A stretch of DNA of 52,007 nt from an uncultured Gammaproteobacteria bacterium (lineage in GTDB: Bacteria; Patescibacteriota; Microgenomatia; UBA10105; UBA927): contig CAYNWD010000002.1 in NCBI GenBank assembly GCA_964400835.1, positions 25,604-77,610 of the forward strand, given 5' to 3'. The notes beneath the pieces were generated by a model. That model was not told the origin of the DNA and ran no database searches. It was given only the letters and a program-made list of their open reading frames with translations. Below, one piece after another: positions 6,222 through 44,536 of this stretch. The translations under genes were made by a program, and so were the position numbers. Numbering within the stretch: position 1 is the stretch's first letter; every line of letters starts with the position of its first letter.

Positions 6222-7349
6222 CTATGCAGACTTTTCATCGTGTCTTTTCCAGATAAATCGTTTATACATAGTATAGTTCCACAGCAATCCAACGCCCACT
6301 CCGATAACGTAAAAAACTCTGTAATTTTCTTTTCCGGAAAGCCACACGCCCACTGCAACCATGCCTGCCTGAATAATGAGCGCACCCAAAGAGGCGGCGT
6401 TAAACTGAAAAAATTTTCCAAATAACCGGTTGCCGCCAATTTTCCTCTGACGGAAGGTCCAATTGTTATTCAGGATAAAATTCGATATGATAGCGCATTC
6501 CGCTCCCAGCGCGCTTCCGACGGCCGGATGGCCGCCGGCCCACACCATCCACTCAAGGACGACGGTGTTCACCAAAAACCCAAATCCTCCAACCAGAAGA
6601 AATTTTCCGAACGTCCCGTGCCACATGGATCGAAGACGGCTTTGTATGACATAGACCACGACGTTGCGGATATATTCCGATGGCGCAATTTTGGAATGGC
6701 CGTACCGGCGATCCGTAAAATGAAAAGGCACTTCCCAGACACGCGCACCCAGGAGAATCGACTTATGCAAAAAAGCGATCTGAAATACATACCCGTTATA
6801 CGTCTCCATTGTTTGCGCCAATGCCTCATAATATTTCCTTTTATATAGGCGGTAGCCGCCGGTCCAGTCGTGAACAGCAGGCAATCCTAAACCGAATCGG
6901 ACAAACGCGTTACCCAAAACCGAATAAATTTTACGGTGCAATCCCCAATTTTCGGGAATCCCGCCGCCCGGAATGTATCTGCTGCCGACGACAAAATCAT
7001 ATCCTTTGTCCAGCGCGTCGAAAAATTCCGGAAGCTTCTTCACATCATGGGAGAGATCGCCGTCAAGCTGCACCATCACCTCCGCATGCAAACGTTTTAC
7101 CGCATGGGTCATGCCGCGCAGCAGTGCTCTCCCCAGACCTTCCTTTTTCCCGGTGAGCAGGTGAACCGACGGGTGTGTTTTCCGGTATTCCTGTACTTCG
7201 GCGGCCGTACCGTCGGGAGAAGTATCATCCACAACCAGGTACGAAAACTGATATTTCCGGAGCGGCTCGCAGGTTCTATGGACGAGGTCAAGGAGAGTCC
7301 GAATATTCTCCCGTTCATTGTACGTGGGAATTATGACGACTACCTTCAT
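6222..7349 (-). CDS. Polyprenol-monophosphomannose synthase-like GT2 fused to a GtrA-like membrane domain
   Basis: VVIIPTYNERENI and VVDDTSPDGT motifs at the N-terminus. C-terminal four-TM GtrA-like segment (LVGGFGFLVNTVVLEW...NFILNNNWTF). Confidence 0.85.
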   Translation of the reverse strand: MKVVVIIPTYNERENIRTLLDLVHRTCEPLRKYQFSYLVVDDTSPDGTAAEVQEYRKTHPSVHLLTGKKEGLGRALLRGMTHAVKRLHAEVMVQLDGDLSHDVKKLPEFFDALDKGYDFVVGSRYIPGGGIPENWGLHRKIYSVLGNAFVRFGLGLPAVHDWTGGYRLYKRKYYEALAQTMETYNGYVFQIAFLHKSILLGARVWEVPFHFTDRRYGHSKIAPSEYIRNVVVYVIQSRLRSMWHGTFGKFLLVGGFGFLVNTVVLEWMVWAGGHPAVGSALGAECAIISNFILNNNWTFRQRKIGGNRLFGKFFQFNAASLGALIIQAGMVAVGVWLSGKENYRVFYVIGVGVGLLWNYTMYKRFIWKRHDEKSA

Positions 7350-7355
7350 GGGTTT

Positions 7356-8312
7356 TTACACCCTTTCGCGCCAATAATTGAGGAGCTCTTCCATGGTTTG
7401 TTTAAAAGGAATCACTGGTTTCCACCCGGTTTTTGCGACAAATTTGCTCCCGTCGCCCGTCAGCACCGGAACATCTGACGGCCGCATCCGGGACGGGTCC
7501 GGGCGAACTTCAACTTTCACTTTGCTAAACGAAAGCAGAAGCGTCAGCATGTCGCCTATGCGGATCGATTTTCCTGTACAAATGTTATACACATCTCCCG
7601 GATCGCACTTTTCAACAGCCAGAAGATACGCGTTTACCATGTCGCGGACATCCGTATAGTCGCGGCTCGACTCAAGGTTGCCCACAAAAATGACCGGCTC
7701 CTGTCTGCCTTTTTCAATGAGAGCGATCTGTTTTGCAAAATTACTTTCCGCAAACGTCTCTCCGCGCCGTGGTCCCGTGTGATTAAAACCGCGCGTTCGA
7801 ACAATGCGCATTTTGTATGACTGAAAATATTGATACCCCAGATAATCCATGGCTACCTTGGAAACCGCATACGGAGAAAGCGGCCGCAGGGGGTTGGTTT
7901 CTTTTATGGGAATCTCGTCTGGATGCACGAGCCCGTATTCTTCAGATGAACACGCAATCTGAATAACCGGGTCGATGCCGACCTGCCGAACTGCCTCAAA
8001 TATATTGGCACTGCCGACAATATTAACCTCTAAAGTCACCGACGGAGAGCCCCATGATGTCGGTACAAACGACTGTGCGGCAAGATGAAAAATATAGTCT
8101 GGTTTTATTCTCGCGATGGTCGTGTACAAGCTATGCGAGTCCAAAAGGTCCGCATCCTCCAGGTGAAGCTTCCCGATAATCCCCTCGATATGATCCTTTT
8201 TGGTGCGTGACCGGGAAAGTCCGTACACCTCGTATCCTTTGGAAAGCAAAAGTTCTGCAAGGTGACTTCCTGCAAACCCTGCAATACCGGTAATCAGCGC
8301 TTTTTTTGCCAT
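7356..8312 (-). CDS. NAD-dependent sugar-nucleotide epimerase/dehydratase (GDP-mannose 4,6-dehydratase / Rmd-like SDR)
   Basis: ITGIAGFAGSHLAELLL Rossmann motif, YAVSK catalytic motif, FNHTGPRRGETF. Confidence 0.8.
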   Translation of the reverse strand: MAKKALITGIAGFAGSHLAELLLSKGYEVYGLSRSRTKKDHIEGIIGKLHLEDADLLDSHSLYTTIARIKPDYIFHLAAQSFVPTSWGSPSVTLEVNIVGSANIFEAVRQVGIDPVIQIACSSEEYGLVHPDEIPIKETNPLRPLSPYAVSKVAMDYLGYQYFQSYKMRIVRTRGFNHTGPRRGETFAESNFAKQIALIEKGRQEPVIFVGNLESSRDYTDVRDMVNAYLLAVEKCDPGDVYNICTGKSIRIGDMLTLLLSFSKVKVEVRPDPSRMRPSDVPVLTGDGSKFVAKTGWKPVIPFKQTMEELLNYWRERV

Positions 8313-8321
8313 AGAGTCTTT

Positions 8322-9620
8322 TTATACTCTGCCAATTCCATAATACATGAAACCTAATTTTTTAACAGCTACCGGATCATAGACATTTCGACCGTCAAAC
8401 AATACCAGGTTTCTCATGCCCTTTGCAAGACGGACCAGGTCAATCTGCCGAAATTCATTCCATTCGGTAAGCACAAGAAGCGCATCGGCGCCTTTTGCTG
8501 CCTCATGAGCACTTTTGACAAAACGAACCGATTTGGGCAGCAATCCTTTGGCATTGTCCATGGCGACCGGATCATACGCGACAATTTTTGCGCCATATTT
8601 GACCAGCTCGGTCAAAATCTTTATCGATGGCGCCTCCCTCATGTCGTCGGTATTGGGTTTAAAAGCAAGCCCCAAGACGCCCAGCGCTTTTCCTTTGATA
8701 TTCCCTTTAAAGTGTTGCATCACCTTGCCAACGAAATGAAGCTTCATTTGTTTATTGATCTCGTCGACTGCCGACAGGAGCTGGAAATCATATCCCTTTG
8801 ACTTTGCAATCGCGATAAGCGCTTTCACGTCTTTGGGAAAGCAGCTGCCGCCGTAACCGACACCCGGATACAAAAAACTTCTCCCGATGCGCCGGTCCAA
8901 CCCTACGCCGTCCAAAACTTTTTCAACGTCCGCGTCGACCTTTTCCGCAACCAGAGCAACGGCGTTCGCAAAAGAAATTTTGGTCGAAAGCATGGCGTTA
9001 CTTGCATATTTAATGCGTTCAGCCGTTTCGGTATTACGCGGAACAGCCTTGCTGTTAATCGGCTTATGAAACTCCAAAAGAATTTCCTGCGCGCGGTCCG
9101 ATGATGTGCCGATGACGACCCGGTCGGGGTGAAGCGTATCGTCGATTGCCGTCCCCTCGCGCAAAAATTCGGGAACGGACGCATAGGCAAACGAGGCGCC
9201 GCTCGGTTTTTGTTTATTGATAATCGCGACAACTTCCTTACCGGTTCCGGGAGGCACCGTACTCTTGGTCACAATGATTTTATATCCGAACAGGTGCTTC
9301 CCAATCTCCTCTGCCGCGGCAAATACGGAAGAAAGATCTGCCTCACCGTTATCCTTGGGAGGAGTGCCCACACAAATAAAAACAATTTCCGACGGTCCGA
9401 CTGCCTCGGCATAATCAAGTGTGAACAGTAATCGTTTCGCGGCAACGTTTCTGGCTACCAACTCCGAAAGGCCCGGCTCGTAAAACGGCGCTATGCCGCG
9501 CTGAAGTTTTTCAATCTTTTCCTTCGTACGGCCGACCACCCAGACGGTATTTCCTAAATCGGCAAAAACCGCTGCGGTGACGAGCCCTACGTAGCCATGA
9601 CCGATAAATGCAACAGTCAT
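8322..9620 (-). CDS. ugd: UDP-glucose 6-dehydrogenase
   Basis: 432 aa. N-terminal IGHGYVGLVTAAVFADLG, catalytic GGSCFPKD motif, C-terminal UDP-binding domain. Confidence 0.9.
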   Translation of the reverse strand: MTVAFIGHGYVGLVTAAVFADLGNTVWVVGRTKEKIEKLQRGIAPFYEPGLSELVARNVAAKRLLFTLDYAEAVGPSEIVFICVGTPPKDNGEADLSSVFAAAEEIGKHLFGYKIIVTKSTVPPGTGKEVVAIINKQKPSGASFAYASVPEFLREGTAIDDTLHPDRVVIGTSSDRAQEILLEFHKPINSKAVPRNTETAERIKYASNAMLSTKISFANAVALVAEKVDADVEKVLDGVGLDRRIGRSFLYPGVGYGGSCFPKDVKALIAIAKSKGYDFQLLSAVDEINKQMKLHFVGKVMQHFKGNIKGKALGVLGLAFKPNTDDMREAPSIKILTELVKYGAKIVAYDPVAMDNAKGLLPKSVRFVKSAHEAAKGADALLVLTEWNEFRQIDLVRLAKGMRNLVLFDGRNVYDPVAVKKLGFMYYGIGRV

Positions 9621-15061: not shown

Positions 15062-15396
15062 GCGAGACCGGCCCCGGTCGCGTCAATTATAACATCGCGG
15101 AACTTTCCCTCGCGCGTGGGAACTTTTGTCTGGTGAAACTCATCCGTCAGCGCATATAAAACAGTGAGGGCAAAAGCAACAAGAAACACATTGACCGCCC
15201 GGCTTTTGGGCATACTCAAACGAAACCCGCGCAGGTACAGGGTAAACAGCAGGCCGTATTCGAGAACATGGAGTGTCTTAAAAAAAAGAAAGTTAACCAT
15301 ACCTTTGTCCGAAACAGCAAGCCGCTGGGTAGAGGACAAAACAAAAATTACGACCATCCACAAAATCGACGGAAAAAAATTACGAAGTATCTTCAT
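14983..15396 (-). CDS. VanZ family membrane protein
   Basis: Trimmed to MKILRNFFPSILWMVVIFVLSS. LTDEFHQ..VPTREG..DVIIDATGA VanZ motif. Confidence 0.75.
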   Translation of the reverse strand: MKILRNFFPSILWMVVIFVLSSTQRLAVSDKGMVNFLFFKTLHVLEYGLLFTLYLRGFRLSMPKSRAVNVFLVAFALTVLYALTDEFHQTKVPTREGKFRDVIIDATGAGLAWYFLVQILPKAPKKLRNQAKRWGVT

Positions 15397-16264
15397 GAAT
15401 ATCTTTTGATTGAAAAAAACTGAGCCGTTTTTGCCAAAGAAAGTATACAGCGAGGATGGCACATCCTAAACCAATAAACAAGAGGCTTATGGCAACGGGC
15501 TTATACCACTGAATGGATTTTCCCTCCTCCTCACCTGTGGGTTCACCCGAGGGACCAGGAGTCGGACTTTCTGCAGTTACCTCGCCGAGCGTTTCTCCGC
15601 CTCCATCAGCCAGGCTCGGAACTATTGTCGCGGTTTTTGCAGCCGGCGTCGGCGTTTTGGTGGGACTAGATCCTGATGTGGGTGTTGCCGTATTGGCCGG
15701 GACAGGGGTGGGCGTCTTCGTAGGAGTGGGTGTTTTCGTGGGAGTGGGTGTTGCGGTGGGAGTCGGAGTAGGTGTGGGCGTTGATGTAGGAGCCAAGCTG
15801 ACACAGGAAACGGTTGACTTTGTCGGATCTTGGTCTTCCTGCCAGCTGCCGCCATCCGGAACTCGGCTAAATGATTTCCCCTCTGTCACAGACTTGTATG
15901 GGTAAGAATCTATCACTGTACCGCTTGAATCGAACAGCGTAGGCGTGTCAACGGTGCTATTGGTGCTACTGGTGTTATTGAGAAATGAGGAAAGATCCAG
16001 GTAGCAGGTATTTTTCGAAGGCAATATACCCGAAAGTGCTTTTTTTGCAGACCCAATATCTGATTCAAAGTCAATATCATCATCAAAAAAATATCCGGAG
16101 AAATCTACCGCTTCTTCATCCGGGTTATAAAATTCTACCCACTCATCACTATCGCCTGATCCGACGGGATTGGGTAAAAACTCATTGAGAACTACGGAGG
16201 CATACGCCTGTCCGGGAAGGACGAAGAGAAAGAAAGCGATGACAGCCAGCACCGACTGCCTCAC
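15380..16264 (-). CDS. Lamin-tail-domain (LTD) surface protein with a Pro/Thr-rich linker and C-terminal TM anchor
   Basis: Signal peptide, then VVLNEFLPNPVGSGDSDEWVEFYNP (LTD motif), a TPTPTPTPTATPTPTKTPTPTKTPTP linker, and a C-terminal hydrophobic helix. Confidence 0.8.
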   Translation of the reverse strand: MRQSVLAVIAFFLFVLPGQAYASVVLNEFLPNPVGSGDSDEWVEFYNPDEEAVDFSGYFFDDDIDFESDIGSAKKALSGILPSKNTCYLDLSSFLNNTSSTNSTVDTPTLFDSSGTVIDSYPYKSVTEGKSFSRVPDGGSWQEDQDPTKSTVSCVSLAPTSTPTPTPTPTATPTPTKTPTPTKTPTPVPANTATPTSGSSPTKTPTPAAKTATIVPSLADGGGETLGEVTAESPTPGPSGEPTGEEEGKSIQWYKPVAISLLFIGLGCAILAVYFLWQKRLSFFQSKDIHEDTS

Positions 16265-23686: not shown

Positions 23687-24871
23687 TCAATACGTCAGCG
23701 ATAGCCTCTGGCCTTTAAAGTCGACAAATCCCTCATCATAATCCACTTTCCACGCGCCCCCCTCCGGAAGGGGAATTTTTCCGTATCCGTTGGGGACGTC
23801 TATGACAAAACGCGCGGTCGCCGCGACACCGGACAGCTTGGGCCGCAGCGCCTGCCACATCCGAATTGCTTTCTTTATCGGCACGGTAAAATGCTGCGCC
23901 CAGTACACGGGATCATTTTGGTAGACGTAATACGGAATAATTCCCTCCCCGGCAAGCTCCGTAAAAAGTTTGTATAACGTTTCCGCACGGTCGTTGACTC
24001 CCTTGAGGAGCACTGTTTGGGTCATGACAACCGCACCCGCTTCCCGGCGAAATCGCTCCAAAACTCCCCGCATCTGCGGAGTAAGCTCCAACGGATGATT
24101 CACATGCACCATAAGCCGCAGGTTGCGTATTTGCTTCGCCGCCTCAATGTGATCATCCCGCACGATAAGCGGATTGTGCACCGGCACGCGTGTCCCGATG
24201 CGGACGATACTGAGCTTTCCGACCCGCTGCAGCTCCCCGAGTTTGCCCAACACATAATGGAGAACTTTGGGGTGAACGGTCAGCGGGTCTCCGCCGGAAA
24301 GAATAATCTCATTGAGTCCGGGCTCTTTTTCGATAAACGAGAGCGTCTCATCTATCTGATCCATAAGAAGATGCGGCGTGTTGGCAAGAGCTGCGTCGCT
24401 GACCCCTTTATGCCCGGAAGGAATTCCCACTTCCCGGCCTCTGGTACAAAATCTGCAGTACGCCGCGCAATACCGGGTAATGGTCCACAGCGCGCGGCCG
24501 TAGTGGGCAAAGGGTTTCTTTGTTTTTTTCTTTGTGTTGCTTTGATATTTGTACACGAGTCCTGGAGCTACCTCATGGTGATCTTCCATGAGCGGATCCT
24601 TCATGCCGCTTTTGAAATACCGCCGTTCCAGATGCGGGCGCGATACAAATTGCCGGCCGATCGGCCCGTCGGGACCGCCGGTGCGGGAAATAAGATCTGA
24701 CAGATACGGCGGAAATATCTCAGGCAGTCCGCCGTGCGGAAGCATCACCTTGGTTCCGCGGGGAGTGAGTGCGGATTTTAACGGTGACACCGGAGGAGCT
24801 GCTGTTTGTAACATATCAAACAACAAAATATTCGCTAAAAATACACTAAAGATTTTTTGACCGTGTGTCAA
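23687..24871 (-). CDS. KamA family radical SAM protein (lysine 2,3-aminomutase / EpmB-like)
   Basis: CAAYCRFCTRG (CxxxCxxC) and the GGDPL motif. The start is uncertain: TTG at 24871 or ATG at 24814. Confidence 0.8.
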   Translation of the reverse strand: MTHGQKIFSVFLANILLFDMLQTAAPPVSPLKSALTPRGTKVMLPHGGLPEIFPPYLSDLISRTGGPDGPIGRQFVSRPHLERRYFKSGMKDPLMEDHHEVAPGLVYKYQSNTKKKTKKPFAHYGRALWTITRYCAAYCRFCTRGREVGIPSGHKGVSDAALANTPHLLMDQIDETLSFIEKEPGLNEIILSGGDPLTVHPKVLHYVLGKLGELQRVGKLSIVRIGTRVPVHNPLIVRDDHIEAAKQIRNLRLMVHVNHPLELTPQMRGVLERFRREAGAVVMTQTVLLKGVNDRAETLYKLFTELAGEGIIPYYVYQNDPVYWAQHFTVPIKKAIRMWQALRPKLSGVAATARFVIDVPNGYGKIPLPEGGAWKVDYDEGFVDFKGQRLSLTY

Positions 24872-27179: not shown

Positions 27180-28388
27180 ATGAACATCATTCGCTTTATT
27201 CTCAAAACCGCTTTTTTTGATTTTACCCGCAACAAGATGCGCACGCTCCTGACGTCATTGGGCATACTCATCGGCGTCGCCTCGGTCGTTCTTCTCATCG
27301 CGTTTGGCCTGGGGCTCAAAGCATACATACGCGGCCAGTTTGAAAATCTGGGAAGCAATCTGGTGTACGTATTCCCGGGGGTCTTCGGCGGAGGCGGCGG
27401 TATCGGGTTTCGGCCCGGAGCGTTCGGCGGCATCCGCTTTGACGAAAAGGACTTTGTGAGTCTCAAAAAAATAGAGGCAGCGCAGGCGGGGGCCGGGGCG
27501 TGCACCAAACCGGTGGATATATCCGGGCCGCGCGAGACCAAATCCATCGACATCTTTGCCGCGACCCCGGAGCTTTTCCCTATCCGCAACTTTACCATAG
27601 ACATCGGCCGGCTCTACACCGATACCGACATGGACAAACGCGCCAAGGTGACGGTCCTTGGACCCAAAATCGCCGAGGACCTTTTCGGCTCGGAGACGAG
27701 AGCACTGGGTAAAACCGTCAAGATCGAAAAACAGGCATATACCGTCATCGGCATCCTCGAACCAAAAGGAGGCGGCGGCTTTGGCGGGCCGGACTTTGAC
27801 ACCTTTGCCTATGTTCCCTTTACCAGCGCTGCGCAGTTTAATCCGAGAAAGGAATTTATCGCGTTTTATCTCAAAGCTGCTGACGAACCGTCGGTAAAAA
27901 CCCTAGTCCAAAAGGCACAAACGGTTCTTACCAGGCGGTACAAAGAAGATAAATTCGCGGTGGTCGAGCAAACCGAAGTTCTTTCCACCGTCACCTCCAT
28001 TTTCACGGTTCTCAATACCGTGCTCGTTGCCATCGGCGGCATTTCCCTGGTCGTCGGCGGCGTGGGTATCATGAACATCATGTACGTCACAGTGACGGAA
28101 AGGATAAAGGAAATCGGCATACGCCGCGCGGTCGGCGCGACCAAACAGGATATATTAGTTCAATTTTTGGCCGAGGCAGTTATCCTGTCGCTCATCGGAG
28201 GAATTGCGGGAATCCTTGTGTCCTTTCTAGTGGTTTTCGCCATCCAACGGTTTTTCCCCGCCTACATCGATGCGACTTCTGTCCTGGTGTCGCTTGGTGT
28301 GGCCTCGCTCGTGGGTATTGTTTTTGGCGTCATGCCGGCCAAAAAAGCCGCCGACCTCTCTCCCATCGACGCGATCCGGTACGAGTAG
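27180..28388 (+). CDS. ABC transporter permease, MacB-like (FtsX-type domain)
   Basis: 402 aa. N-terminal TM segment, large periplasmic domain, C-terminal three-TM FtsX-like domain with the ERIKEIGIRRAVGA motif. Confidence 0.85.
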   Translation: MNIIRFILKTAFFDFTRNKMRTLLTSLGILIGVASVVLLIAFGLGLKAYIRGQFENLGSNLVYVFPGVFGGGGGIGFRPGAFGGIRFDEKDFVSLKKIEAAQAGAGACTKPVDISGPRETKSIDIFAATPELFPIRNFTIDIGRLYTDTDMDKRAKVTVLGPKIAEDLFGSETRALGKTVKIEKQAYTVIGILEPKGGGGFGGPDFDTFAYVPFTSAAQFNPRKEFIAFYLKAADEPSVKTLVQKAQTVLTRRYKEDKFAVVEQTEVLSTVTSIFTVLNTVLVAIGGISLVVGGVGIMNIMYVTVTERIKEIGIRRAVGATKQDILVQFLAEAVILSLIGGIAGILVSFLVVFAIQRFFPAYIDATSVLVSLGVASLVGIVFGVMPAKKAADLSPIDAIRYE

Positions 28389-28394
28389 CTTTTC

Positions 28395-28423
28395 TTGACA
28401 ACATGTTCCTGCAGCGCTAGAAT
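28395..28423 (+). promoter_or_regulatory. Sigma70-type promoter TTGACA-17-TAGAAT for the small-ORF pair
   Basis: ttgaca (28395..28400), 17-nt spacer, tagaat (28418..28423). AGGA lies 12 nt before the ATG at 28440. Confidence 0.7.
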
Positions 28424-28439
28424 AGGACGAAATAAAATT

Positions 28440-28738
28440 ATGAGACACTTTGGAGTAGAACAAAAAGGATTTACCCCCCCCAGTCGGGAACGCTGGCAAA
28501 CCAGGTTAGACATTGGAGGCGCGAAGGACGGAATGTTCTGCTTACCGAAGAGGAAGCACTCTTTCTGAGAAATGGTGGAGCCCTACCCGCAATGTTCAAA
28601 GGACACGTCGTTGCAGCAATAGATCAAGGAAACGGCAATTTCAAGCTTACTACTAAAAAGGGTTACAGGGCGACGGGCAATGGTCGAAAAATAGTAGAAG
28701 AGACTCTAGAAAATAATTGCTTCAAAAAAGAACGATAA
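28440..28738 (+). pseudogene. Small ORF interrupted at a C8 tract (phase-OFF or frameshifted). It gives 42 aa as sequenced and 99 aa with one extra C.
   Basis: The ATG at 28440 gives MRHFGVEQKGFTPP, with C8 at 28474..28481, and the current frame stops at 28566..28568. The +1 frame is open from the tract to the TAA at 28736..28738 and is paralogous to 28757..29029. Confidence 0.6.
28474..28481 (+). repeat. C8 homopolymer inside codons 12-14 of the first small ORF
   Basis: ttaCCCCCCCCagt, counted directly. Confidence 0.95.
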
Positions 28739-28756
28739 ATGGACTAAAGTCAGGCT

Positions 28757-29029
28757 ATGAAACTCCCGGAAATCCCCCAAGAATCGTCTAACCCCCCCCG
28801 TGGAGCACGTTTTTATCGCAGGGTGGGAAATAATTCGCTTAGCCTGACACCAGACGAATATTCTCTTCTAAGTGGCGGCGAATTTCTTGAGAACCCCGAT
28901 CTAGTAGGAACAAACATAACAGTAAAAGCGGGTCGCAACGGTAGGTATCGGGTGACATTTACGTCAAGGGATTTTAGAGACAACGCATTAGGCATTCTTG
29001 ATACTGCTGAACATACGGACGGAGAATAA
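28757..29029 (+). CDS. Small hypothetical protein (90 aa), in-frame paralog of 28440..28738
   Basis: MKLPEIPQESSNPPRG, with C8 at 28792..28799 in codons 12-15. GNNSLSLTPDEYSLLSGGEFL aligns with GRNVLLTEEEALFLRNGGAL of the upstream frame-shifted ORF. Confidence 0.6.
   Translation: MKLPEIPQESSNPPRGARFYRRVGNNSLSLTPDEYSLLSGGEFLENPDLVGTNITVKAGRNGRYRVTFTSRDFRDNALGILDTAEHTDGE
28792..28799 (+). repeat. C8 homopolymer inside codons 12-15 of the second small ORF
   Basis: taaCCCCCCCCgtg, counted directly. Confidence 0.95.
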
Positions 29030-29036
29030 GCCGGCC

Positions 29037-29408
29037 TCACTTCGTCACTTCCCAAACGTGATTGTCCGGATCTTTGAAGTAGGCCACTGTTTGTCCCCAC
29101 GATGTCGTTTTGGGTCCTTCGAAGATAACGACTCCCTTTGCGGAAAGTTCCGCACACGCCTTTTCCACATTATCCACAGAAAATGCATAGACTGCGCTTG
29201 CCGGTGTATTCATGTGCTCTTTGCCAAACATAGCCGTTGCTTCGTCTTTCTGAAAAATTCCCAGGAGCGTGTCGCCGAGTTTAAAATCCGCATATTTTCC
29301 GTCCCGGGAATTGAGCGTCAATCCCAATACATCGCGATAGAATGCCACTGACCGGTCAAAGTCAGTCACGAGCAAACACACGGCATAGAGCTTATTAAAC
29401 ATACCCAT
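29037..29408 (-). CDS. VOC/glyoxalase family protein
   Basis: Trimmed to MGMFNKLYAVCLLVTDFDRSVAFYRDVLGL. C-terminal YFKDPDNHVWEV. Confidence 0.8.
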   Translation of the reverse strand: MGMFNKLYAVCLLVTDFDRSVAFYRDVLGLTLNSRDGKYADFKLGDTLLGIFQKDEATAMFGKEHMNTPASAVYAFSVDNVEKACAELSAKGVVIFEGPKTTSWGQTVAYFKDPDNHVWEVTK

Positions 29409-29428
29409 AAGTCTCCCTCGTAACATCA

Positions 29429-32149
29429 TTACCCCGCCTGCGGGTAGTGGCATTTCTTCCACTTCTTGCCGCTTCCGCACCAGCAGGGATCATTGCGCTG
29501 AATTTTCTTTTTGACCGTGGGCTGACCGACGACTGATTGGGAAAGGTTCGCTTCTGCCGGCAGCGACCGCGTTTTTATCGGCATGGGCTTCTGAACCCCT
29601 GGCAGGGGCATGGGCGTGGGCTGCGGCCGATCACTTGGTGCCGGAGCTGGCTGCGGAGCAAGCTGAACCTGCACTTTAAAAATACGGTGGACGATTTCGC
29701 TGTCTATACTTGCCATAAGCCGTTCAAACATCGTGAACGCTTCATTTTTGTATTCCACCAAAGGATCACGCTGACCGTACCCGCGAAGCCCTATGCCTTC
29801 GCGCAGATCATCAATGGCGTCTAAGTGATCCATCCACACCGTATCAATAACCTGCAGACTCACCCAGCGCTCGACCTGACGGGCGACTTCGGGCGACAAT
29901 TGCTTCTCCCGCTCGGCATAAATATCGCTTCCCACTTTGGCTAAAAATTCCGTCATCTCGCCTGCCGCGTGCATTTGCCCGAGCTGTTGCGCCAGACGTT
30001 TCTGCGATGCTTCATCGAAGGGTAAAATGGAGACGAATTCCGAAACAATTTTTTCCCTATCTACACCGGTAGCACCTTCTGTGGTGTGCATGGCGACCAC
30101 ATTGGCAACGGTGTCATGAACTTTGGCGAGAATCGTCTCTTTCTGGCTTTCACCTTCTAGGATTTTGCGCCGTCTGCGGTAGACAATTTCCCGCTGCTTA
30201 TTGAGAACATCATCGTACTCGACCAGGTGCTTGCGAGAGTCAAAATGAAACCCTTCCACTTTTACCTGCGCCTGCTCTATGGCGCGGCTGACCATGCCGT
30301 GTTCAAGCGGTACGTCCTCGGGCATTTTAAACACCGTCATGAGCTTTGCCACCTGATCCCCGCCAAAAAGCCGCATGATGTCGTCCTCAAGCGACACATA
30401 AAACCTGCTGGACCCCGGGTCTCCCTGCCTGCCGGATCTTCCGCGCAGCTGATTGTCAATACGCCTCGACTCGTGCCGTTCTGTGCCGATGACATGAAGC
30501 CCCCCGATCGCAACCACTTCATCATGCCGTTTTTTCCACCGCTCCTCTTCCGTCTTCCACTCTTTTTCATCTTTGTATTCCCATTTGTCCTTTTTACTGC
30601 CGCCCAAAATAATGTCCACGCCCCGTCCTGCCATGTTCGTTGCGACCGTGACCGCACCCTTTTTGCCTGCATCCGCGATAATCATAGCCTCGCCTAAGTG
30701 ATTTTTGGCATTGAGCACCTGATGCGGCACACCTTTCCGCTTCAGAAACTCGCTGATAATTTCATTTTTATCTATCGCCGTCGTGCCCACGAGAACCGGC
30801 TGGCCGCGCTTGTGGTGCTCAATAATATCTGCAACCACGGCGGCATACTTTGCCCGGGTCGTTTTATACACGCTGTCGGCATGATCGGTCCGCACCATGG
30901 GCCGGTGTGTGGGTAAAGCGAGGACATCCAGGTTATAAATCTTCTTAAATTCTTCCGCCTCTGTTGCCGCGGTTCCTGTCATGCCGGAGAGCTTCTCATA
31001 CATGCGGAAGTAATTTTGCAAAGACACGGTCGCAAGCGTTTTACTTTCCTGCTGAATCGGCACTCCCTCCTTGGCCTCGATCGCCTGGTGGATGCCTTCA
31101 CTAAACCGCCTGCCCTGAAGCAGGCGCCCGGTAAATTCATCGACTATCACCACCTGGCCGTCTTTGACCACATACTCCCTGTCTTTTTGATACAGCGTCC
31201 GGGATTTCAGTGCTGCCTCTATATGGTGTATCGCACTGAAGTCGTTTTCATAAATATTCCCCAGCCCCAAAAATTTTTCTACCTTGAGTATCCCGTGGTC
31301 AGTCAGGTGTGCAGTCCGGAGTTTTTCGTCTATGACGTAATCCGTTTCCTTCGTGAGCTTCTCGACGAGCTTGGCGTAGTCATAATATTTATGCGTTGCC
31401 TCCTCTGCGGGAGCGGAAATAATATGCGGTGTGCGCGCCTCATCGATGAGTATGGAGTCCACCTCATCTATCACCGCAAAATGGTAATCCCGCTGAACGA
31501 GCTGGCTTTTATCCGTTGCCATGTTGTCGCGCAGGTAGTCAAATCCAAATTCGCTGTTTATGCCGTAGGTTATGTCGGCGCCGTATGCTTCTTTTCGTGT
31601 CACCGGCCGCAGATGCCGCAGCCGCCAATCTGACGCGCCTTTATCCTCATGGGAGGGGTCGTAGAGAAATGATTGCTCGCTGATCATGGCGGAAACAGTG
31701 AGACCCAAACTGTGATAAATAGGACCCATCCAGCCCGCATCGCGCCGGGCCAAGTAATCGTTTACCGTCACCAGATGCGCACCCCGTCCGGTCAGGGCAT
31801 TCAGATACAAAGCCGGGGTCGCAGACAGCGTTTTTCCTTCTCCGGTTTTTTGTTCAGCAATTTTGCCCTGGTGCAAGGCAATCGCTGCCAAAAGCTGCAC
31901 GTCATAATGCCGCTCGCCGATCGTGCGGCTTGCTGCCTCCCGCACCAGTGCGTAGGCATCGACCAATATGTCGTCGAGCGTTTGGCCAGAGGATACGCGC
32001 TCCCGAAGCTCTGCGGTTTTTTGAGGTAATTTCGCATCAGACAGCTTATGAACTTCTTCCTCCTTCTGACTGATTCTTGCCACGATGGCGCGGGAACGGT
32101 CCAGGTCCTTTTTTCCGCTGTCCAGAAACTTCCCGAGGAATTTAAACAT
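29429..32149 (-). CDS. secA: Preprotein translocase ATPase SecA
   Basis: 906 aa. MFKFLGKFLDS N-terminus, DEAD-like motor motifs (TGEGKT, DEVDSILIDEARTP), C-terminal zinc motif CWCGSGKKWKKCH. Confidence 0.95.
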   Translation of the reverse strand: MFKFLGKFLDSGKKDLDRSRAIVARISQKEEEVHKLSDAKLPQKTAELRERVSSGQTLDDILVDAYALVREAASRTIGERHYDVQLLAAIALHQGKIAEQKTGEGKTLSATPALYLNALTGRGAHLVTVNDYLARRDAGWMGPIYHSLGLTVSAMISEQSFLYDPSHEDKGASDWRLRHLRPVTRKEAYGADITYGINSEFGFDYLRDNMATDKSQLVQRDYHFAVIDEVDSILIDEARTPHIISAPAEEATHKYYDYAKLVEKLTKETDYVIDEKLRTAHLTDHGILKVEKFLGLGNIYENDFSAIHHIEAALKSRTLYQKDREYVVKDGQVVIVDEFTGRLLQGRRFSEGIHQAIEAKEGVPIQQESKTLATVSLQNYFRMYEKLSGMTGTAATEAEEFKKIYNLDVLALPTHRPMVRTDHADSVYKTTRAKYAAVVADIIEHHKRGQPVLVGTTAIDKNEIISEFLKRKGVPHQVLNAKNHLGEAMIIADAGKKGAVTVATNMAGRGVDIILGGSKKDKWEYKDEKEWKTEEERWKKRHDEVVAIGGLHVIGTERHESRRIDNQLRGRSGRQGDPGSSRFYVSLEDDIMRLFGGDQVAKLMTVFKMPEDVPLEHGMVSRAIEQAQVKVEGFHFDSRKHLVEYDDVLNKQREIVYRRRRKILEGESQKETILAKVHDTVANVVAMHTTEGATGVDREKIVSEFVSILPFDEASQKRLAQQLGQMHAAGEMTEFLAKVGSDIYAEREKQLSPEVARQVERWVSLQVIDTVWMDHLDAIDDLREGIGLRGYGQRDPLVEYKNEAFTMFERLMASIDSEIVHRIFKVQVQLAPQPAPAPSDRPQPTPMPLPGVQKPMPIKTRSLPAEANLSQSVVGQPTVKKKIQRNDPCWCGSGKKWKKCHYPQAG

Positions 32150-39631: not shown

Positions 39632-39643
39632 AAACTAACCATC

Positions 39644-39667
39644 AAAAAACCCCTCTTGGTGAGGGGC
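39644..39667 (-). terminator. Intrinsic terminator inside the 5' leader of the 38564..39631 operon
   Basis: The minus strand reads GCCCCUC-ACCAA-GAGGGG followed by UUUUUU. It ends 13 nt before the ATG at 39631. Confidence 0.7.
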
Positions 39668-39697
39668 TTTGCTCGAAAATACAAAAAAACGTAACTT

Positions 39698-39778
39698 TTA
39701 CACGAGAAGGCCCCCCCTCATACGATGGGTTTGTTTCTTCTCCTTCTTGGCAATGGTTTGCACTACTGAGCTATTCAT
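39698..39778 (-). CDS. Candidate 26-aa leader peptide MNSSVVQTIAKKEKKQTHRMRGGLLV (Lys-codon cluster)
   Basis: My own translation. The ATG lies about 8 nt from the predicted TSS and has no SD. Codons 11-15 are AAG AAG GAG AAG AAA. The stop falls just after the G-rich antiterminator arm. Confidence 0.35.
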   Translation of the reverse strand: MNSSVVQTIAKKEKKQTHRMRGGLLV

Positions 39779-39792
39779 ACTACAAGTTCCCA

Positions 39793-39821
39793 TATATACA
39801 CGTATATTTCTGCCTTGTCAA
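39793..39821 (-). promoter_or_regulatory. Promoter TTGACA-17-TATATA
   Basis: The minus strand reads TTGACAAGGCAGAAATATACGTGTATATA, located right after the greA terminator. Confidence 0.7.
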
Positions 39822-39831
39822 TAGAACAATG

Positions 39832-39853
39832 AAAAAACCCGCCGGGTGGCGGG
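39832..39853 (-). terminator. Intrinsic terminator of greA
   Basis: The minus strand reads CCCGCC-ACCC-GGCGGG followed by UUUUUU, about 25 nt after the greA stop. Confidence 0.8.
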
Positions 39854-39878
39854 TTTTCCGGTCTTCGTAATGATTGCG

Positions 39879-40343
39879 TTATTCAATATGCAGAATTTTG
39901 TAAAGTATTTTGCCCGCCGGAGCCGCCACTTCCACTTTCTCCCCCACCTTTTTGCCCATGAGCGCCTTCCCCAGGGGGGATTCGTGAGAAATTTTCTTCT
40001 CCGCGGGATCTGCTTCCCATTCGCCGACCACGGTGAACACATCTTTTTTGCCGTTTATATGCAAGGTCACTTTGCAGCCCACGTCTACACTGCCTTTTTT
40101 GTGCGAGGTAATGATTTTTGCCGCATGCAAAATCTCCTCCAACTCCAGTATTCTGCCGTCTATGAACGAAAGATCCTGTTTGGCTGCCGCGTATTCGCTG
40201 TTTTCCGAAAGATCGCCCAGGTCGCGGGCGTCGGAAAGCCGCTTGACGACCGCCGGCCGTTTGGTAGCGGTCAGCTCTTCGTATTCGGATTTGAGCTCAT
40301 CCAAGCCCTGCTTGGTCATGAGTACTTTGTGGTTTGCATCCAT
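39879..40343 (-). CDS. greA: Transcription elongation factor GreA
   Basis: MTKQGLDELKSEYEEL...DLSENSEYAAAKQDL coiled-coil motif plus the C-terminal FKBP-like domain. Confidence 0.92.
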   Translation of the reverse strand: MDANHKVLMTKQGLDELKSEYEELTATKRPAVVKRLSDARDLGDLSENSEYAAAKQDLSFIDGRILELEEILHAAKIITSHKKGSVDVGCKVTLHINGKKDVFTVVGEWEADPAEKKISHESPLGKALMGKKVGEKVEVAAPAGKILYKILHIE

Positions 40344-40363
40344 GGTAATTCCCTTCGGGGCCT

Positions 40364-40398
40364 AAAAAAAACTCCCCGCAAGACGTTTTGTTCGGGAG
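40364..40398 (-). terminator. Terminator hairpin plus U8 inside the greA 5' leader (GraL-like attenuator)
   Basis: The minus strand reads CUCCCG-(14 nt)-CGGGGAG-UUUUUUUU. It lies between the predicted greA promoter and the ATG, with only about 20 nt left before the ATG. Confidence 0.6.
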
Positions 40399-40412
40399 CT
40401 TAGGCTGTATAT

Positions 40413-40441
40413 ATTGTACCCAACTTCCCTTGCCCTGTCAA
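40413..40441 (-). promoter_or_regulatory. greA promoter TTGACA-17-TACAAT
   Basis: The minus strand reads TTGACAGGGCAAGGGAAGTTGGGTACAAT. Its -35 abuts the -35 of the divergent tRNA-Glu promoter. Confidence 0.7.
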
Positions 40442-40458
40442 GGCCAAGCTGATAGAAT
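40430..40458 (+). promoter_or_regulatory. tRNA-Glu promoter TTGCCC-17-TAGAAT
   Basis: The -10 ends 9 nt before the first tRNA nucleotide. Confidence 0.6.
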
Positions 40459-41994
40459 CAAATCCGCGCCGCGTTCGTCTAGAGGCCCAGGACGACAGGT
40501 TCTCAACCTGTAAATCACCGGTTCGAATCCGGTACGCGGTACCAAAGTTGATTTTTGATCCAATGACTTCTGTATTAGAGCAAAAGGAAGGCCTAATTGC
40601 TCGGTTCCAATAAGTCCGTCCTTATAGACAATACCCTTTGGAAACAATAAGGCTTGGAACATCTGTTTGTGTCCAAAGGTTGCTTCTAACCAAATTGAGG
40701 CTACGTTATTAAATAGGCTCTCGGAAAAGGCAACTAAATAATCTATATCAGTCTCTTCAGTCCTTGCTTCTGATCGCTCAACTTCCTTGATAACAAGCTC
40801 TTCTTTAATAGCCTGATTCTGCTCTCTGTAATCGTCATCACTAATAATGCCCTCTAGATTTTTGCGAACCAGCTTTGTTTGTAGCTCTTTTAGCACAGCG
40901 ATATTTCCATCTATGCGTTTCACCGAATCAATAGCCTCGCTTTGTTTCTGCTTCCAAACGTCATATAGAACCTCTTGAAACAATCGTTGAAACTGCTTGT
41001 TTGGTTGAATTCTCTTTAAAGCATCAAAGAAAACTTGTTCAAACAGTTCTTTGGAGACTCTGGTTTTGCCACACAAGCAATGATAATACGCATATCGTTT
41101 ATTCCTTCCTCTAGATCGGCTAGCAGTTAAACCTTTACCACAGTGTTCACATTTAGCAATATTCTTCAAAGGAAAATCAGGATTATTTAATAATCTAGGA
41201 ACAGCAGTAAAAGATACGCCTTCTCGTATTTGTTGGACTTTGTAGAATAATTCTGGGCTTATGAGTTTTGAATGAAGGCCATCTATATCCACTCCCCAGT
41301 CTTTGACCGTAAGACGGCCAATGTAGAGCTTATTTTGAAGCATATTAGCGACCGCTTGAGTAGATATTCGGTTACCGTTTTTTGTTCTGACACCCCATGA
41401 GTTCAGCTTAGATGCTATATCTTTTAATCTATGACCCCCTTGAGCGTACACTTCAAATGCCTTTTTGATATACGGTGCTGTCTGTTTATCAATAACTAAA
41501 CCTGCCTTTGTATTCTTGTAACCCAAGGGAGCACCCCATGCCCATAACCCTTGGTTGACCCTTTCCTTTAATCCTTCTTTTGTTCGCTCCGCTCTAATAT
41601 CGTTATCTAGCTGTGCAACCGCTGCATAAATAGTCCCCATAAAATTGCCCTGGGAAGTATCGTCTATTGGCTCTGTAACGGATCTAAGAATAATATTATG
41701 CGCTATTAAGGTGGTCTTGATTGCAAGATAGTCTGCAGCTATACGAGAAACGCGATCAATTTTATGAACTAAAACAACGTCAGTTTCTTTTCTATGTTTA
41801 TTGCAAAATTCAAGAAGCTTAAGTAATTGTGTTCTGTTTGCGCTTTTCGCTGATTCTCCTTGCTCTTGAAAGACTCCAACAACTTCCCAGCCTTGTTTAT
41901 TGGCGTACTCTCTACAAATATTTTCCTGATAAGTTAAGCTATACCCTTCAACTTGTTCTTTTGTTGATACGCGGGTATAAATAACAACTTTCAT
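40438..41994 (-). CDS. Large serine recombinase (integrase); the last ~35 codons read antisense through tRNA-Glu
   Basis: MKVVIYTRVSTKEQ (catalytic Ser), recombinase domain, zinc ribbon CEHCGKGL...YYHCLC, coiled-coil region. The ORF continues past the compositional boundary at 40545. Confidence 0.85.
   Translation of the reverse strand: MKVVIYTRVSTKEQVEGYSLTYQENICREYANKQGWEVVGVFQEQGESAKSANRTQLLKLLEFCNKHRKETDVVLVHKIDRVSRIAADYLAIKTTLIAHNIILRSVTEPIDDTSQGNFMGTIYAAVAQLDNDIRAERTKEGLKERVNQGLWAWGAPLGYKNTKAGLVIDKQTAPYIKKAFEVYAQGGHRLKDIASKLNSWGVRTKNGNRISTQAVANMLQNKLYIGRLTVKDWGVDIDGLHSKLISPELFYKVQQIREGVSFTAVPRLLNNPDFPLKNIAKCEHCGKGLTASRSRGRNKRYAYYHCLCGKTRVSKELFEQVFFDALKRIQPNKQFQRLFQEVLYDVWKQKQSEAIDSVKRIDGNIAVLKELQTKLVRKNLEGIISDDDYREQNQAIKEELVIKEVERSEARTEETDIDYLVAFSESLFNNVASIWLEATFGHKQMFQALLFPKGIVYKDGLIGTEQLGLPFALIQKSLDQKSTLVPRTGFEPVIYRLRTCRPGPLDERGADLILSAWP
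40468..40544 (+). tRNA. tRNA-Glu (anticodon CUC), CCA encoded
   Basis: Folded by hand. Acceptor GCCGCGU/ACGCGGU; D arm GUCU-AGAGGCCCA-GGAC; anticodon stem ACAGG/CCUGU with loop UUCUCAA; T arm ACCGG-UUCGAAU-CCGGU; discriminator A; CCA. Confidence 0.92.
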
Positions 41995-42004
41995 GGGTTG
42001 AGGA

Positions 42005-42202
42005 TCACTTTTCATATTGGGTGTTCTTGGGTGGGGAGTCAATAACCCCAAGTTGTTTATTGGAACCTTTTGAGCCTACAACTGAAGATATTATTTCTGC
42101 TAAAGAGTAAAATTGAGCCAATAAATCTTGAACATCTCTGTCCGACATGCTCCTATACTCACCCCCTAATATTTTTCTTGCTTTGCTTACAGTAACCGCC
42201 AT
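42005..42202 (-). CDS. Small hypothetical protein (65 aa) upstream of the recombinase, possible directionality/DNA-binding factor
   Basis: Trimmed to MAVTVSKARKILGGEYRSMSDRDVQDLLAQF. Its own promoter lies upstream. Function is an inference from position only. Confidence 0.4.
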   Translation of the reverse strand: MAVTVSKARKILGGEYRSMSDRDVQDLLAQFYSLAEIISSVVGSKGSNKQLGVIDSPPKNTQYEK

Positions 42203-42346: not shown

Positions 42347-43210
42347 CTATTGGGTAACAAGTGGTTTATTTGATCTTGGTTTCTCTCCTTTTTTTAGTCC
42401 AGTGAGTGACGGAAATATGAGATAATCTTTTTTTAGAATTGAGCAGTATATTTCAAAAACACTGTCAAAAGATAAAAGTGTAAAGTATTGCGGACACTCC
42501 AAAGCTATAACCGCGTCTCCAAGTTTTAAGCATCTTGTTTTCATATCTGATCGTTTATAGTCAGCTTTTATTTCAGAAAAGATACTTAGGTGATTTTTAA
42601 AATCTCTATGAGTACCGTATTTACCGTTAACATTTTTATCCAAAAACATATCAAGAATAGCGCTCTGTTTTATCCAAAATTTCTCTTGACCACATTGACC
42701 AACACAACGAATATCTTCAGTGAACTTATGGAATCCATCTTCGGTGAATTCAAGGTCTACCTTGTTAGTTTTGAAACCAGAGTTGTTAGCCACATATCCA
42801 TCAATTATTTCTTCAAATAACCAGTAGAATTGCAAGATATAGCTGTAAACAATAGCAAGTGCCTTATCTTTGTTATCAATTGCCTCTTTGTTCTTAATAA
42901 GTTCGCTAAGAAATAACAGAATTTCTTTTAAATCTCTTGTAGAACGACTTACGTTACTAAACACATTAATTGCGTCAGAAAGTGATGCTTCTTCGCGTAA
43001 TATAAAATAGAAATTGATTAATGGAACAATGAGTGCCTCCTTAAACTCGCGAAAAATAAAAAGGGAAGAAAATTTCTTTGAATTAACTAAAATACTTTCT
43101 ATGAGCTGTTTCTGTGAAGGGTGACCCAGCAATCGCTTTATTTGAATTGAAGTCTCAAGATAATACTGGTCTTTAGGACTCGCTTCATGTGGTTTTCTTT
43201 TCTTCTTCAT
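42347..43210 (-). CDS. Island gene C: hypothetical 287-aa protein, possible split PIN-like nuclease fold
   Basis: N-terminal YYLETSIQIKRLLG and C-terminal LGDAVIALECPQYFTLLSFDSVF resemble the first and last acidic motifs of PIN domains, separated by a long insert. Weak, by eye only. Confidence 0.5.
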   Translation of the reverse strand: MKKKRKPHEASPKDQYYLETSIQIKRLLGHPSQKQLIESILVNSKKFSSLFIFREFKEALIVPLINFYFILREEASLSDAINVFSNVSRSTRDLKEILLFLSELIKNKEAIDNKDKALAIVYSYILQFYWLFEEIIDGYVANNSGFKTNKVDLEFTEDGFHKFTEDIRCVGQCGQEKFWIKQSAILDMFLDKNVNGKYGTHRDFKNHLSIFSEIKADYKRSDMKTRCLKLGDAVIALECPQYFTLLSFDSVFEIYCSILKKDYLIFPSLTGLKKGEKPRSNKPLVTQ

Positions 43211-43853
43211 AATGCTCTTCGTACGGAAATAAGTTTAATCCGGTTTTTTGAAGGCTGATCGTGGCGATTTTAACGTCTTTCAATTCAATGTCATTACTCA
43301 ATAGCAATGCAGTGACTGAAACCAACGCCTTCGCTTGTTGGACGTCTATATTACGCCATAAATTAAATCTCATTATTGAATCAACAGTGCTCACCAACAT
43401 TGAGAAATGTTCATCATTACCAGTATAATTCCAAATTTCATTAATTAAATCTTTAACTTTAGAATAATACATTGCGCTTTCTGGCTGGCCTAAATTAGTC
43501 GCGAATTTATTCAATTCCTCAAACATCGTCTGAAGAAGAGGTTGTCTTTTTATTTTCCTATATGCCAAAGATTGGCGTACATCGGCTGGCTGCGCAGTTG
43601 CTGGTTCGTCAATTTGCATCTGACTTGCCAGGGTTTGTGGTTTTTCCGTTTTAATAACAACTGGCTCACTATAAGTGCCTATTGGCATCCATTCTGCAGA
43701 TGAGATTTTCGGGGTTTCCTCTTGGTGTAAAGGGTATACATTATCACCAAACACAATTGAAGTTCTTGAGTGACCTGAATATTCAGCTACTTTTAACGAA
43801 GCCGCATAAGTAAAGTCTTGATTTAAGTGGTAATGAATTGGTACGGTGCTCAT
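43185..43853 (-). CDS. Island gene B: hypothetical 222-aa protein, no recognisable domain
   Basis: ATGA overlap with gene A and a 26-nt overlap with gene C. N-terminal beta-like part, low-complexity linker, helical C-terminal half. Confidence 0.5.
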   Translation of the reverse strand: MSTVPIHYHLNQDFTYAASLKVAEYSGHSRTSIVFGDNVYPLHQEETPKISSAEWMPIGTYSEPVVIKTEKPQTLASQMQIDEPATAQPADVRQSLAYRKIKRQPLLQTMFEELNKFATNLGQPESAMYYSKVKDLINEIWNYTGNDEHFSMLVSTVDSIMRFNLWRNIDVQQAKALVSVTALLLSNDIELKDVKIATISLQKTGLNLFPYEEHYEEEKKTT

Positions 43854-44536
43854 GCTTTTGAGGGAATCAGTTTTAAAGATTCTTGAACTGTTGAACTAAC
43901 TAATTTCCTTATTTCTGTTATGTATCTATTAAGATCCCTAGCTCTACAATCTTTATCTTTATATCCATCAACATCCAAATAAGTCATAACTTCTGAAAGG
44001 CCTTCAGAATCTAACTCAAACTTTGTATTTGGGCCAAATTTAGCGAGGCCCTCATCTTTTGAAACTGGTCCGAATAAATAATGAAACTTATAGTTCTCTC
44101 TTTCAAAATCTGCACTAAAAACAGCGTCAGAGATTTTCTGACCAACTATAGCCTCAATTTCCTTATCTTTTGGATAAAACTTTTCTTGAAATAAAGAAAC
44201 CAATTCTGGATATTTTAGTGCAGTTTTATTCAAAAGAGTGTGTCTTATACCTACCCTCAAAATATCGGTAAGTGGGAGTTTTGAAGTATAAGTGGTGATA
44301 ACGAATTCAAGAAAAGCGAAAAATTTATCCTCATCTTTAACATCGTCACAAATAACTGCTAATCTTTTGTGTTCAAGAAAGCATGCGAGTTTTTCTTTCT
44401 TGTCAAAGAGATCTATCTTAAGAGCATTCGTTTCCCAGTCGGGAAGCGTTTTATTGATTTCAGCCCCTATTTCATCTTTGAATCGGTAGAATAGCAGATT
44501 GGGCTTTATGACAAGCTCCACAACGATTCGTTTCAT
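43850..44536 (-). CDS. Island gene A: hypothetical 228-aa protein (size and an RVGIRH motif recall the uncharacterised TIGR04255 family; unverified)
   Basis: First gene of the operon. Leaderless-type promoter directly upstream. Confidence 0.5.
   Translation of the reverse strand: MKRIVVELVIKPNLLFYRFKDEIGAEINKTLPDWETNALKIDLFDKKEKLACFLEHKRLAVICDDVKDEDKFFAFLEFVITTYTSKLPLTDILRVGIRHTLLNKTALKYPELVSLFQEKFYPKDKEIEAIVGQKISDAVFSADFERENYKFHYLFGPVSKDEGLAKFGPNTKFELDSEGLSEVMTYLDVDGYKDKDCRARDLNRYITEIRKLVSSTVQESLKLIPSKA

Follow-up and report, generated by a model that had tools for sequence, protein, structure and literature searches.

Whether two small tandem genes that carry a run of eight cytosines (C8) at the same early codon form a phase-variable pair is the question raised by a short interval in a 52,007-nt stretch of DNA (hereafter the window) from an environmental CPR bacterium. 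The genomes of CPR bacteria are tiny and encode few regulators, and these organisms are believed to live attached to other cells. The two genes, hereafter ORF1 and ORF2, are tentatively read here as a pair of simple-repeat contingency genes, with ORF1 OFF and ORF2 ON in the assembled consensus, a reading that is plausible from the sequence and is given somewhat less than an even chance. The mechanism itself is already known; what would be unusual is the lineage (Microgenomates/Gottesmanbacteria-like CPR) and the orphan character of the genes.

The interval 28389-29036 is the gap from the stop of a MacB-type permease gene (27180-28388, plus strand), with genes for an ABC ATPase and a HlyD/MacA-type adaptor ahead of it, to the stop of a convergent glyoxalase-family gene (29037-29480, minus strand), next to which lies secA. 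The upstream neighbour is a MacA/MacB-type ABC exporter operon and the downstream neighbour a convergent glyoxalase/SecA pair. A near-perfect promoter ahead of ORF1 had been noticed in the initial annotation, and the site was recovered as a sigma-70-type sequence, TTGACA-17 nt-TAGAAT (28395-28423, plus strand; TTGACA at 28395, TAGAAT at 28418), matching the consensus at 11 of 12 positions. From this site we infer a transcript start at about 28429-28432, which would give ORF1 a leader of about 10 nt without a Shine-Dalgarno sequence. Six near-consensus sigma-70 sites (11/12 match, 17-18-nt spacer) were counted in the window against about 0.7 expected with equiprobable bases, a roughly nine-fold excess; they lie at 28395 (+), 43400 (+), 49224 (-), 40441 (-), 34705 (-) and 21899 (-), and one near-consensus promoter stands just upstream of the start of the Lon gene (49176). 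Because six such sites were found where about 0.7 were expected, they are probably mostly real in this organism. The slightly lower GC content noted earlier was also reproduced, at 0.45-0.47 over 28400-29150 versus 0.51-0.57 in the flanks. The same annotation held that the region had no other coding explanation, and this stood: no Rfam family was matched in 28200-29200, the alternative frames scored negative, the minus-strand ORFs across the interval were non-coding by codon-usage score, and no alternative coding or RNA explanation of the interval was found.

As assembled, ORF1 (28440-28568, plus strand) begins with the ATG at 28440 and ends after 42 aa at the stop codon 28566-28568. Its N-terminal 14 codons, MRHFGVEQKGFTPP (28440-28481, plus strand, frame 0), have the first poly-C tract at their end (28474-28481, plus strand; starting at nt 35 of ORF1 and covering nt 35-42), which is out of frame in the assembly. 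A single additional C in this tract (C9) gave, in silico, a product of 99 aa, MRHFGVEQKGFTPPQSG...KKER, with the stop at 28736-28738; the body of this restored ORF1 after the tract (28481-28738, plus strand; 85 codons and a stop) holds the segment conserved with ORF2. The downstream ORF2 (28757-29029, plus strand) encodes 90 aa and is in frame (ON), and its C8 tract (28792-28799, plus strand) occupies nt 36-43, from codon 12 position 3 to codon 15 position 1. Across the tracts ORF1 reads ACC CCC CCC AGT and ORF2 reads AAC CCC CCC CGT, and C9 in ORF1 would put the end of its tract at nt 43, the same as in ORF2. Other tract lengths in silico gave 22 aa (C7) and 98 aa (C6) for ORF1, and 29 aa (C7), 90 aa (C8) and 25 aa (C9) for ORF2, so that exactly one in three phases of each tract was productive. 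The end of restored ORF1 at 28738 lies 18 nt upstream of the ORF2 ATG. The initial annotation had thus described correctly the two C8 runs at the same early codon of two tandem genes, the termination of ORF1 at 42 aa, the 99-aa frame opened by one added C and the intact ORF2.

The interpretation of ORF1 as a gene broken at its tract depends on its relationship to ORF2. In BLASTP, restored ORF1 and ORF2 shared 28% identity across 76 aa (pairwise E = 7e-4); for the same similarity, a tblastn search across the whole window returned E values of only 0.3-1. The Smith-Waterman score of the two products was 51 compared with 25.1±4.5 for 5000 shuffles (p = 2e-4), and among 773 other stop-free six-frame 99-aa pieces of the window the maximum was 39 against ORF2 and 43 against restored ORF1. 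The three frames after the first tract were clearly separated in the comparison with ORF2, the +1 C frame scoring 45 and the other two 18 and 27. The first start codon belonging to the post-tract frame of ORF1 itself is the ATG at 28592, downstream of the best-conserved segment. Moreover, the N-termini MRHFGVEQKGFTPP in ORF1 and MKLPEIPQESSNPP in ORF2 are of equal length before the tract and have M1, Q8, P13 and P14 in common. Considering the frame scores, the position of this start codon and the N-terminal match, ORF1 is an ORF2 paralog that loses its frame at the tract. The aligned segments quoted in the earlier claim of similarity reappeared with both BLASTP and MAFFT, the resemblance of the extended ORF1 frame to ORF2 held on formal alignment, and the proposed frameshift at the tract was likewise supported, the +1 C frame being the only one that both resembles ORF2 and scores as coding. 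At the DNA level ORF1 and ORF2 were unalignable apart from the tracts, and no notable DNA repeats between them were found beyond these. As far as two sequences at 28% identity can establish it, ORF1 and ORF2 are real but distant paralogs.

Their coding character was assessed with a codon-usage log-likelihood trained on 30 long window genes. After its tract, ORF1 in the +1 C frame scored +0.086 per codon and ORF2 +0.059, values reached by only 0.15% of off-frame chunks of real genes; the as-assembled continuation of ORF1 (28482-28565) scored -0.145 per codon, and the five alternative frames of each ORF region were all negative. Among chunks of true genes, the scores of ORF1 and ORF2 fell within the lowest 6-9%, and their GC3 was 0.39-0.40 versus 0.55. 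The low codon scores and low GC3 suggest that the two are foreign or young genes.

Long C/G runs proved to be rare. Only three runs of at least 8 occur in the window. The third (C8 at 994-1001) is a G8 on the coding strand and falls in the poly-Gly tail, ...GGGSSGGGGGGGGGGSW*, with which a DUF2207 membrane protein of 655 aa (minus strand, 975-2942) ends at its C terminus; this G8 is in frame, and the tract was rejected as another switch for that reason, being part of an in-frame poly-Gly tail. In 160 related loci from Microgenomates/Patescibacteria (1.41 Mb), six C/G runs of at least 8 were present, none with a second such run inside 5 kb. In 30 ordinary genes of the window (37 kb with 23 Pro-Pro dipeptides), C runs on the coding strand did not exceed 5. 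Given the peptides and the codon usage of the window, the probability of a C run of at least 8 was 0.028 for FTPPQS (ORF1) and 0.026 for SNPPRG (ORF2), and the joint probability of both tracts was about 7.5e-4. The tracts are beyond what codon usage explains. Since ruvB of the Gottesmanbacteria relative L011, a housekeeping gene (ORF 2088-3143), contains an in-frame C8 at 2152-2159 (T-P-P, codons 22-24), a lone C8 is no proof of a switch; the unusual feature is the pairing of C8 tracts at homologous codons of diverged paralogs. Two more distant Patescibacteria carry a coding-strand C9 of equal length in both contigs (L050, 3026-3034; L147, 1026-1034), which corresponds to the peptide SSLPPPLF; in an ORF of about 360 aa it is reached some 28 nt after the open frame begins.

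The homopolymers of the window also bear on the quality of the assembly. Besides the two tracts, 47 homopolymers of at least 7 were found, 43 of which lie inside open frames of at least 300 nt with sequence on both sides, among them all four A/T runs of 8 as well as the DUF2207 G8; the remaining four are outside any long open frame. With 43 of 47 runs in open frames, an assembly riddled with homopolymer indels is unlikely, although a single C8/C9 miscall would escape this check. A frameshift suspected at A7 runs near 15380-15465 was rejected, as VanZ and a lamin-tail-domain protein are encoded there by distinct genes. Between genes at 39632-39845, an A7 and a C7 run stand 22 nt apart (39683-39717), 3' of a hairpin-like sequence, CCCCTCTTGGTGAGGGG, and 5' of a family-less ORF (39846-40403).

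Under the contingency reading, two lineage-specific small genes, old paralogs of each other, each have a C run at codons 12-14/15, and slipped-strand mispairing during replication would add a C to either tract or remove one. Each gene could then move independently between one full-length phase (C9 for ORF1, C8 for ORF2) and two truncated phases. Tract length would vary in the population, and this variation may be used adaptively. The position of the ORF1 end, 18 nt before the ORF2 ATG, could also couple translation of ORF2 to the state of ORF1. Five features define contingency loci, the decisive ones being length polymorphism and reversible switching; the other three, a 5' G/C tract of about 7-8 nt or more, toggling by ±1 and over-representation, were found in silico in this single assembly. 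In one assembly, a pseudogene with a fixed frameshift, or a consensus in which C8 and C9 were confused, would present the same picture as a switch.

Several other explanations have to be weighed against such a switch. ORF1 may be a fixed pseudogene, a dispensable duplicate that lost a C from a mutation-prone tract, in which case the tracts would be historical accidents. The location of orphan genes at a site with other contents in the relatives L005 and L011 is in keeping with such decay, as are the GC3 values and codon scores, which are those expected of recently acquired or decaying genes, and the in-frame C8 in ruvB of a relative; nevertheless, the post-tract frame of ORF1 has kept 85 open codons together with a coding-type score, and retention of C8 at the homologous codon of copies only 28% identical is hard to explain without selection on the tract. 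A pseudogene is accordingly considered rather unlikely, though it deserves more credit than the remaining alternatives. The frameshift might instead be a homopolymer miscall of a true C9, so that ORF1 would be an ordinary, intact 99-aa gene. Long-read and flow-based platforms are known for confusing C8 with C9, and the restored gene looks normal, but none of the 47 other homopolymers of at least 7 was associated with a broken frame, A8, T8 and G8 runs included, and the neighbouring C8 of ORF2 was called in frame. Even if a miscall had occurred, which appears improbable, the paired tracts would need explaining.

Programmed recoding could yield both the 42-aa and the 99-aa products from a single DNA sequence, through slippage of RNA polymerase or a -1 ribosomal shift within the C tract. 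On a C8 run, tRNA-Pro or the nascent RNA could pair again after stepping back by one base, an AAGGA lies 5 nt upstream of the tract, and some slippage on a C8-type run is likely in any case. Yet the efficient sites of transcriptional slippage that are known are mostly A/T runs, no unusual downstream RNA structure was seen (folding z = -0.11 for 28482-28560 and +0.88 for 28800-28878 versus shuffles), and the paralog ORF2 has its tract in frame, which leaves the out-of-frame arrangement without conservation; recoding is regarded as very unlikely. Little more weight is given to the view that neither ORF is real, the interval being a non-coding spacer in which similarity and tracts coincide by chance. 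It would account for the lack of any homolog among 5.8 billion clustered proteins or, beyond repeat-motif matches, 1.84 billion representatives, for the low confidence of the structure models and for the weak Shine-Dalgarno sequences. It is difficult to reconcile with two frames scoring far above off-frame sequence while all five alternatives of each are negative, with an ORF1-ORF2 similarity above every control, and with a strong promoter and no Rfam match.

Homologs were sought in related loci along the lines proposed by the initial annotation, and no ortholog of ORF1 or ORF2 was found in 160 syntenic MacAB loci (1.41 Mb). By its MacAB operon the window belongs to Microgenomates and stands near Gottesmanbacteria: the best permease identity among these relatives was 67-70%, and secA was 70-74% identical in Gottesmanbacteria loci. 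The space between permease and secA carries different cargo in relatives and is a variable spot. One relative (L005, 7326-7924) has two small minus-strand ORFs of 97 and 102 aa there, which look toxin-antitoxin-like by eye, and L011 has an ABC-2 transporter between its MacB permease and secA (7210-9255). A match in L051 (E = 0.01) was dismissed as an ortholog, since it lies inside a radical-SAM gene around an 'SGGEP' motif and is attributable to chance.

Larger collections gave the same result. Among 5.8 billion clustered proteins, a word-indexed search recovered for ORF2 no protein but ORF2 itself, and no match for restored ORF1; ORF2 forms a singleton cluster from one NCBI contig of 81,704 bp, and the neighbouring permease is likewise a singleton. 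No record of the exact products from an independent assembly was found, nor any strain variant, ortholog or second assembly in the collections searched. JGI metagenomes, IMG/VR and phage and plasmid collections contained no homologs. An exhaustive profile search of 1.84 billion representatives yielded only weak summed matches to unrelated giant beta-repeat proteins. The possibility of a cadherin-like/Ig-like adhesin repeat was rejected, as the matches were scattered over cadherin-like, Calx-beta and MBG repeats and consisted of many weak stretches summed; ORF2 compared with one P0002 repeat gave p = 0.1. We take these matches to reflect a hairpin motif of generic type ('G-N-G-x-[YF]-x-[VL]-T') and not homology.

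The profile and structure searches that had been advised for the 99-aa and 90-aa products revealed no homolog, family or confident fold. Neither product was assigned to a family by Pfam, NCBIfam, PHROGs, PADLOC or PDB sequence profiles, the sole near-match being TruB_C (E = 0.044), below the cut-off. AlphaFold (AF2) models of the two products had low confidence (pLDDT 58.6 and 55.3); both low-confidence models would place two short strands and a helix before three further strands, and Foldseek returned nothing at E <= 0.001 for either. The predicted beta-beta-alpha-beta-beta order brought to mind a swapped-hairpin antitoxin of the AbrB/MazE/SpoVT type, a candidate that was rejected when hhalign gave a probability of 0.4% against an alignment of AbrB, Abh, SpoVT and MazE and neither Pfam nor Foldseek provided a match. 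Both products are hydrophilic, with no signal peptide and no membrane helix, and are predicted to be soluble. Restored ORF1 is basic (pI 10.1) and ORF2 acidic (pI 5.4). As a working guess, the two would be small proteins, one basic and one acidic, that interact with each other and are varied in dosage in a stochastic manner.

A possible export signal was also considered. Double-glycine leaders follow the consensus Leu(-12)-x3-Glu(-8)-Leu(-7) before Gly-Gly (PMC6363468). In a post-hoc search, the ORF2 segment LTPDEYSLLSGG (L30-TPD-E34-Y35-SLLS-G40-G41) was consensus-like except for Tyr at -7, and restored ORF1 matched the double-glycine pattern only with a shift of one residue; a relaxed form of the pattern, also chosen post hoc, had no matches in 12,363 aa of window genes. 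No leader model of Pfam or NCBIfam matched either ORF, and of the window proteins scanned none was a C39-peptidase ABC exporter or PCAT. The exporter next to the two genes is of the MacA/MacB type, and the MacAB operon is present in 160 relatives without ORF1 and ORF2. Export of the products as peptides of the double-glycine type is kept as an unlikely lead.

In the reference genome of C. jejuni, paralogous poly-G families have a separate tract in each paralog, some in frame and some out of frame. The architecture of ORF1 and ORF2 also resembles that of Campylobacter poly-G/C contingency genes, with a G:C homopolymer of about 8-9 nt early in the frame and one of three phases productive (PMC8355987), and that of Neisseria and Helicobacter poly-G/C contingency genes with an early intragenic tract (Neisseria: PMC5084427). 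However, the Campylobacter, Neisseria and Helicobacter loci are mostly surface, glycosylation and restriction-modification genes of host-adapted pathogens in which switching has been measured, whereas the putative switch genes described here encode soluble orphans of 90-99 aa from an environmental CPR bacterium.

Similar single-base effects have been reported for Listeria monocytogenes inlA, where the tract is confined to the first few dozen nucleotides and the OFF state is a very short peptide (PMC2831843); as in ORF1, the frame is regained when one base is inserted (Orsi et al. 2010, PMC2831843). Switchable homopolymers are in general placed near the 5' end of the gene (PMC2831843). The inlA tract is nevertheless poly(A), and the over-representation described there concerns A/T tracts and not C (PMC2831843). 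Reversible frameshifts in a short homopolymer of a gene for a cytoplasmic protein are also known from glpK and other genes of M. tuberculosis (PMC10334774, bioRxiv 10.1101/717272), indicating that the mechanism extends beyond surface antigens (PMC10334774). Those genes differ from ORF1 and ORF2 in being single, conserved, metabolic genes of known function with population-level evidence, and not a paralog pair.

Within the CPR, the nearest precedent for slipped-strand-type variation comes from a Gracilibacterium with a hypervariable repeat gene, yet the in-frame 9-mer repeats of that gene change the length of the protein and involve no ON/OFF homopolymer switch (PMC6851277). The diversification devices known from CPR bacteria are diversity-generating retroelements and in-frame repeat variation (PMC6851277). 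No literature linking simple-repeat ON/OFF switching to genes of CPR, Patescibacteria or Saccharibacteria was found. The fuller proposal, that the locus would be the first simple-repeat contingency locus in CPR, with four heritable states and a basic/acidic pair of orphans that may be exported by a double-glycine route, is doubtful on present evidence. If true, it would mean stochastic variation of interactions with hosts, competitors or phages in an ultra-small, presumably host-dependent cell. Confirmation of mixed tract lengths would indicate that mutational bet-hedging of the pathogen type operates in CPR lineages too, and that two orphan proteins matter enough for their presence or absence to be randomised; a uniform tract length would point to a merely broken duplicate gene.

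Two further features of the window deserve mention. A large serine recombinase with Resolvase and Recombinase domains (40438-42051, minus strand) overlaps with its 3' end a tRNA-Glu(CTC) gene (40468-40544, plus strand), and three ORFs at 42347-44536 belong to no Pfam family. This region, which may be the edge of an integrated element, is located about 11 kb from ORF1 and ORF2, with secA, serS and lysS in between. The minus-strand gene at 23687-24871 encodes a KamA-family radical SAM protein (lysine 2,3-aminomutase / EpmB-like) for which no score reached the equivalog cut-offs. The protein probably has no connection with the C-tract genes; if EpmB-like, it would have a bearing on EF-P and the translation of proline runs.
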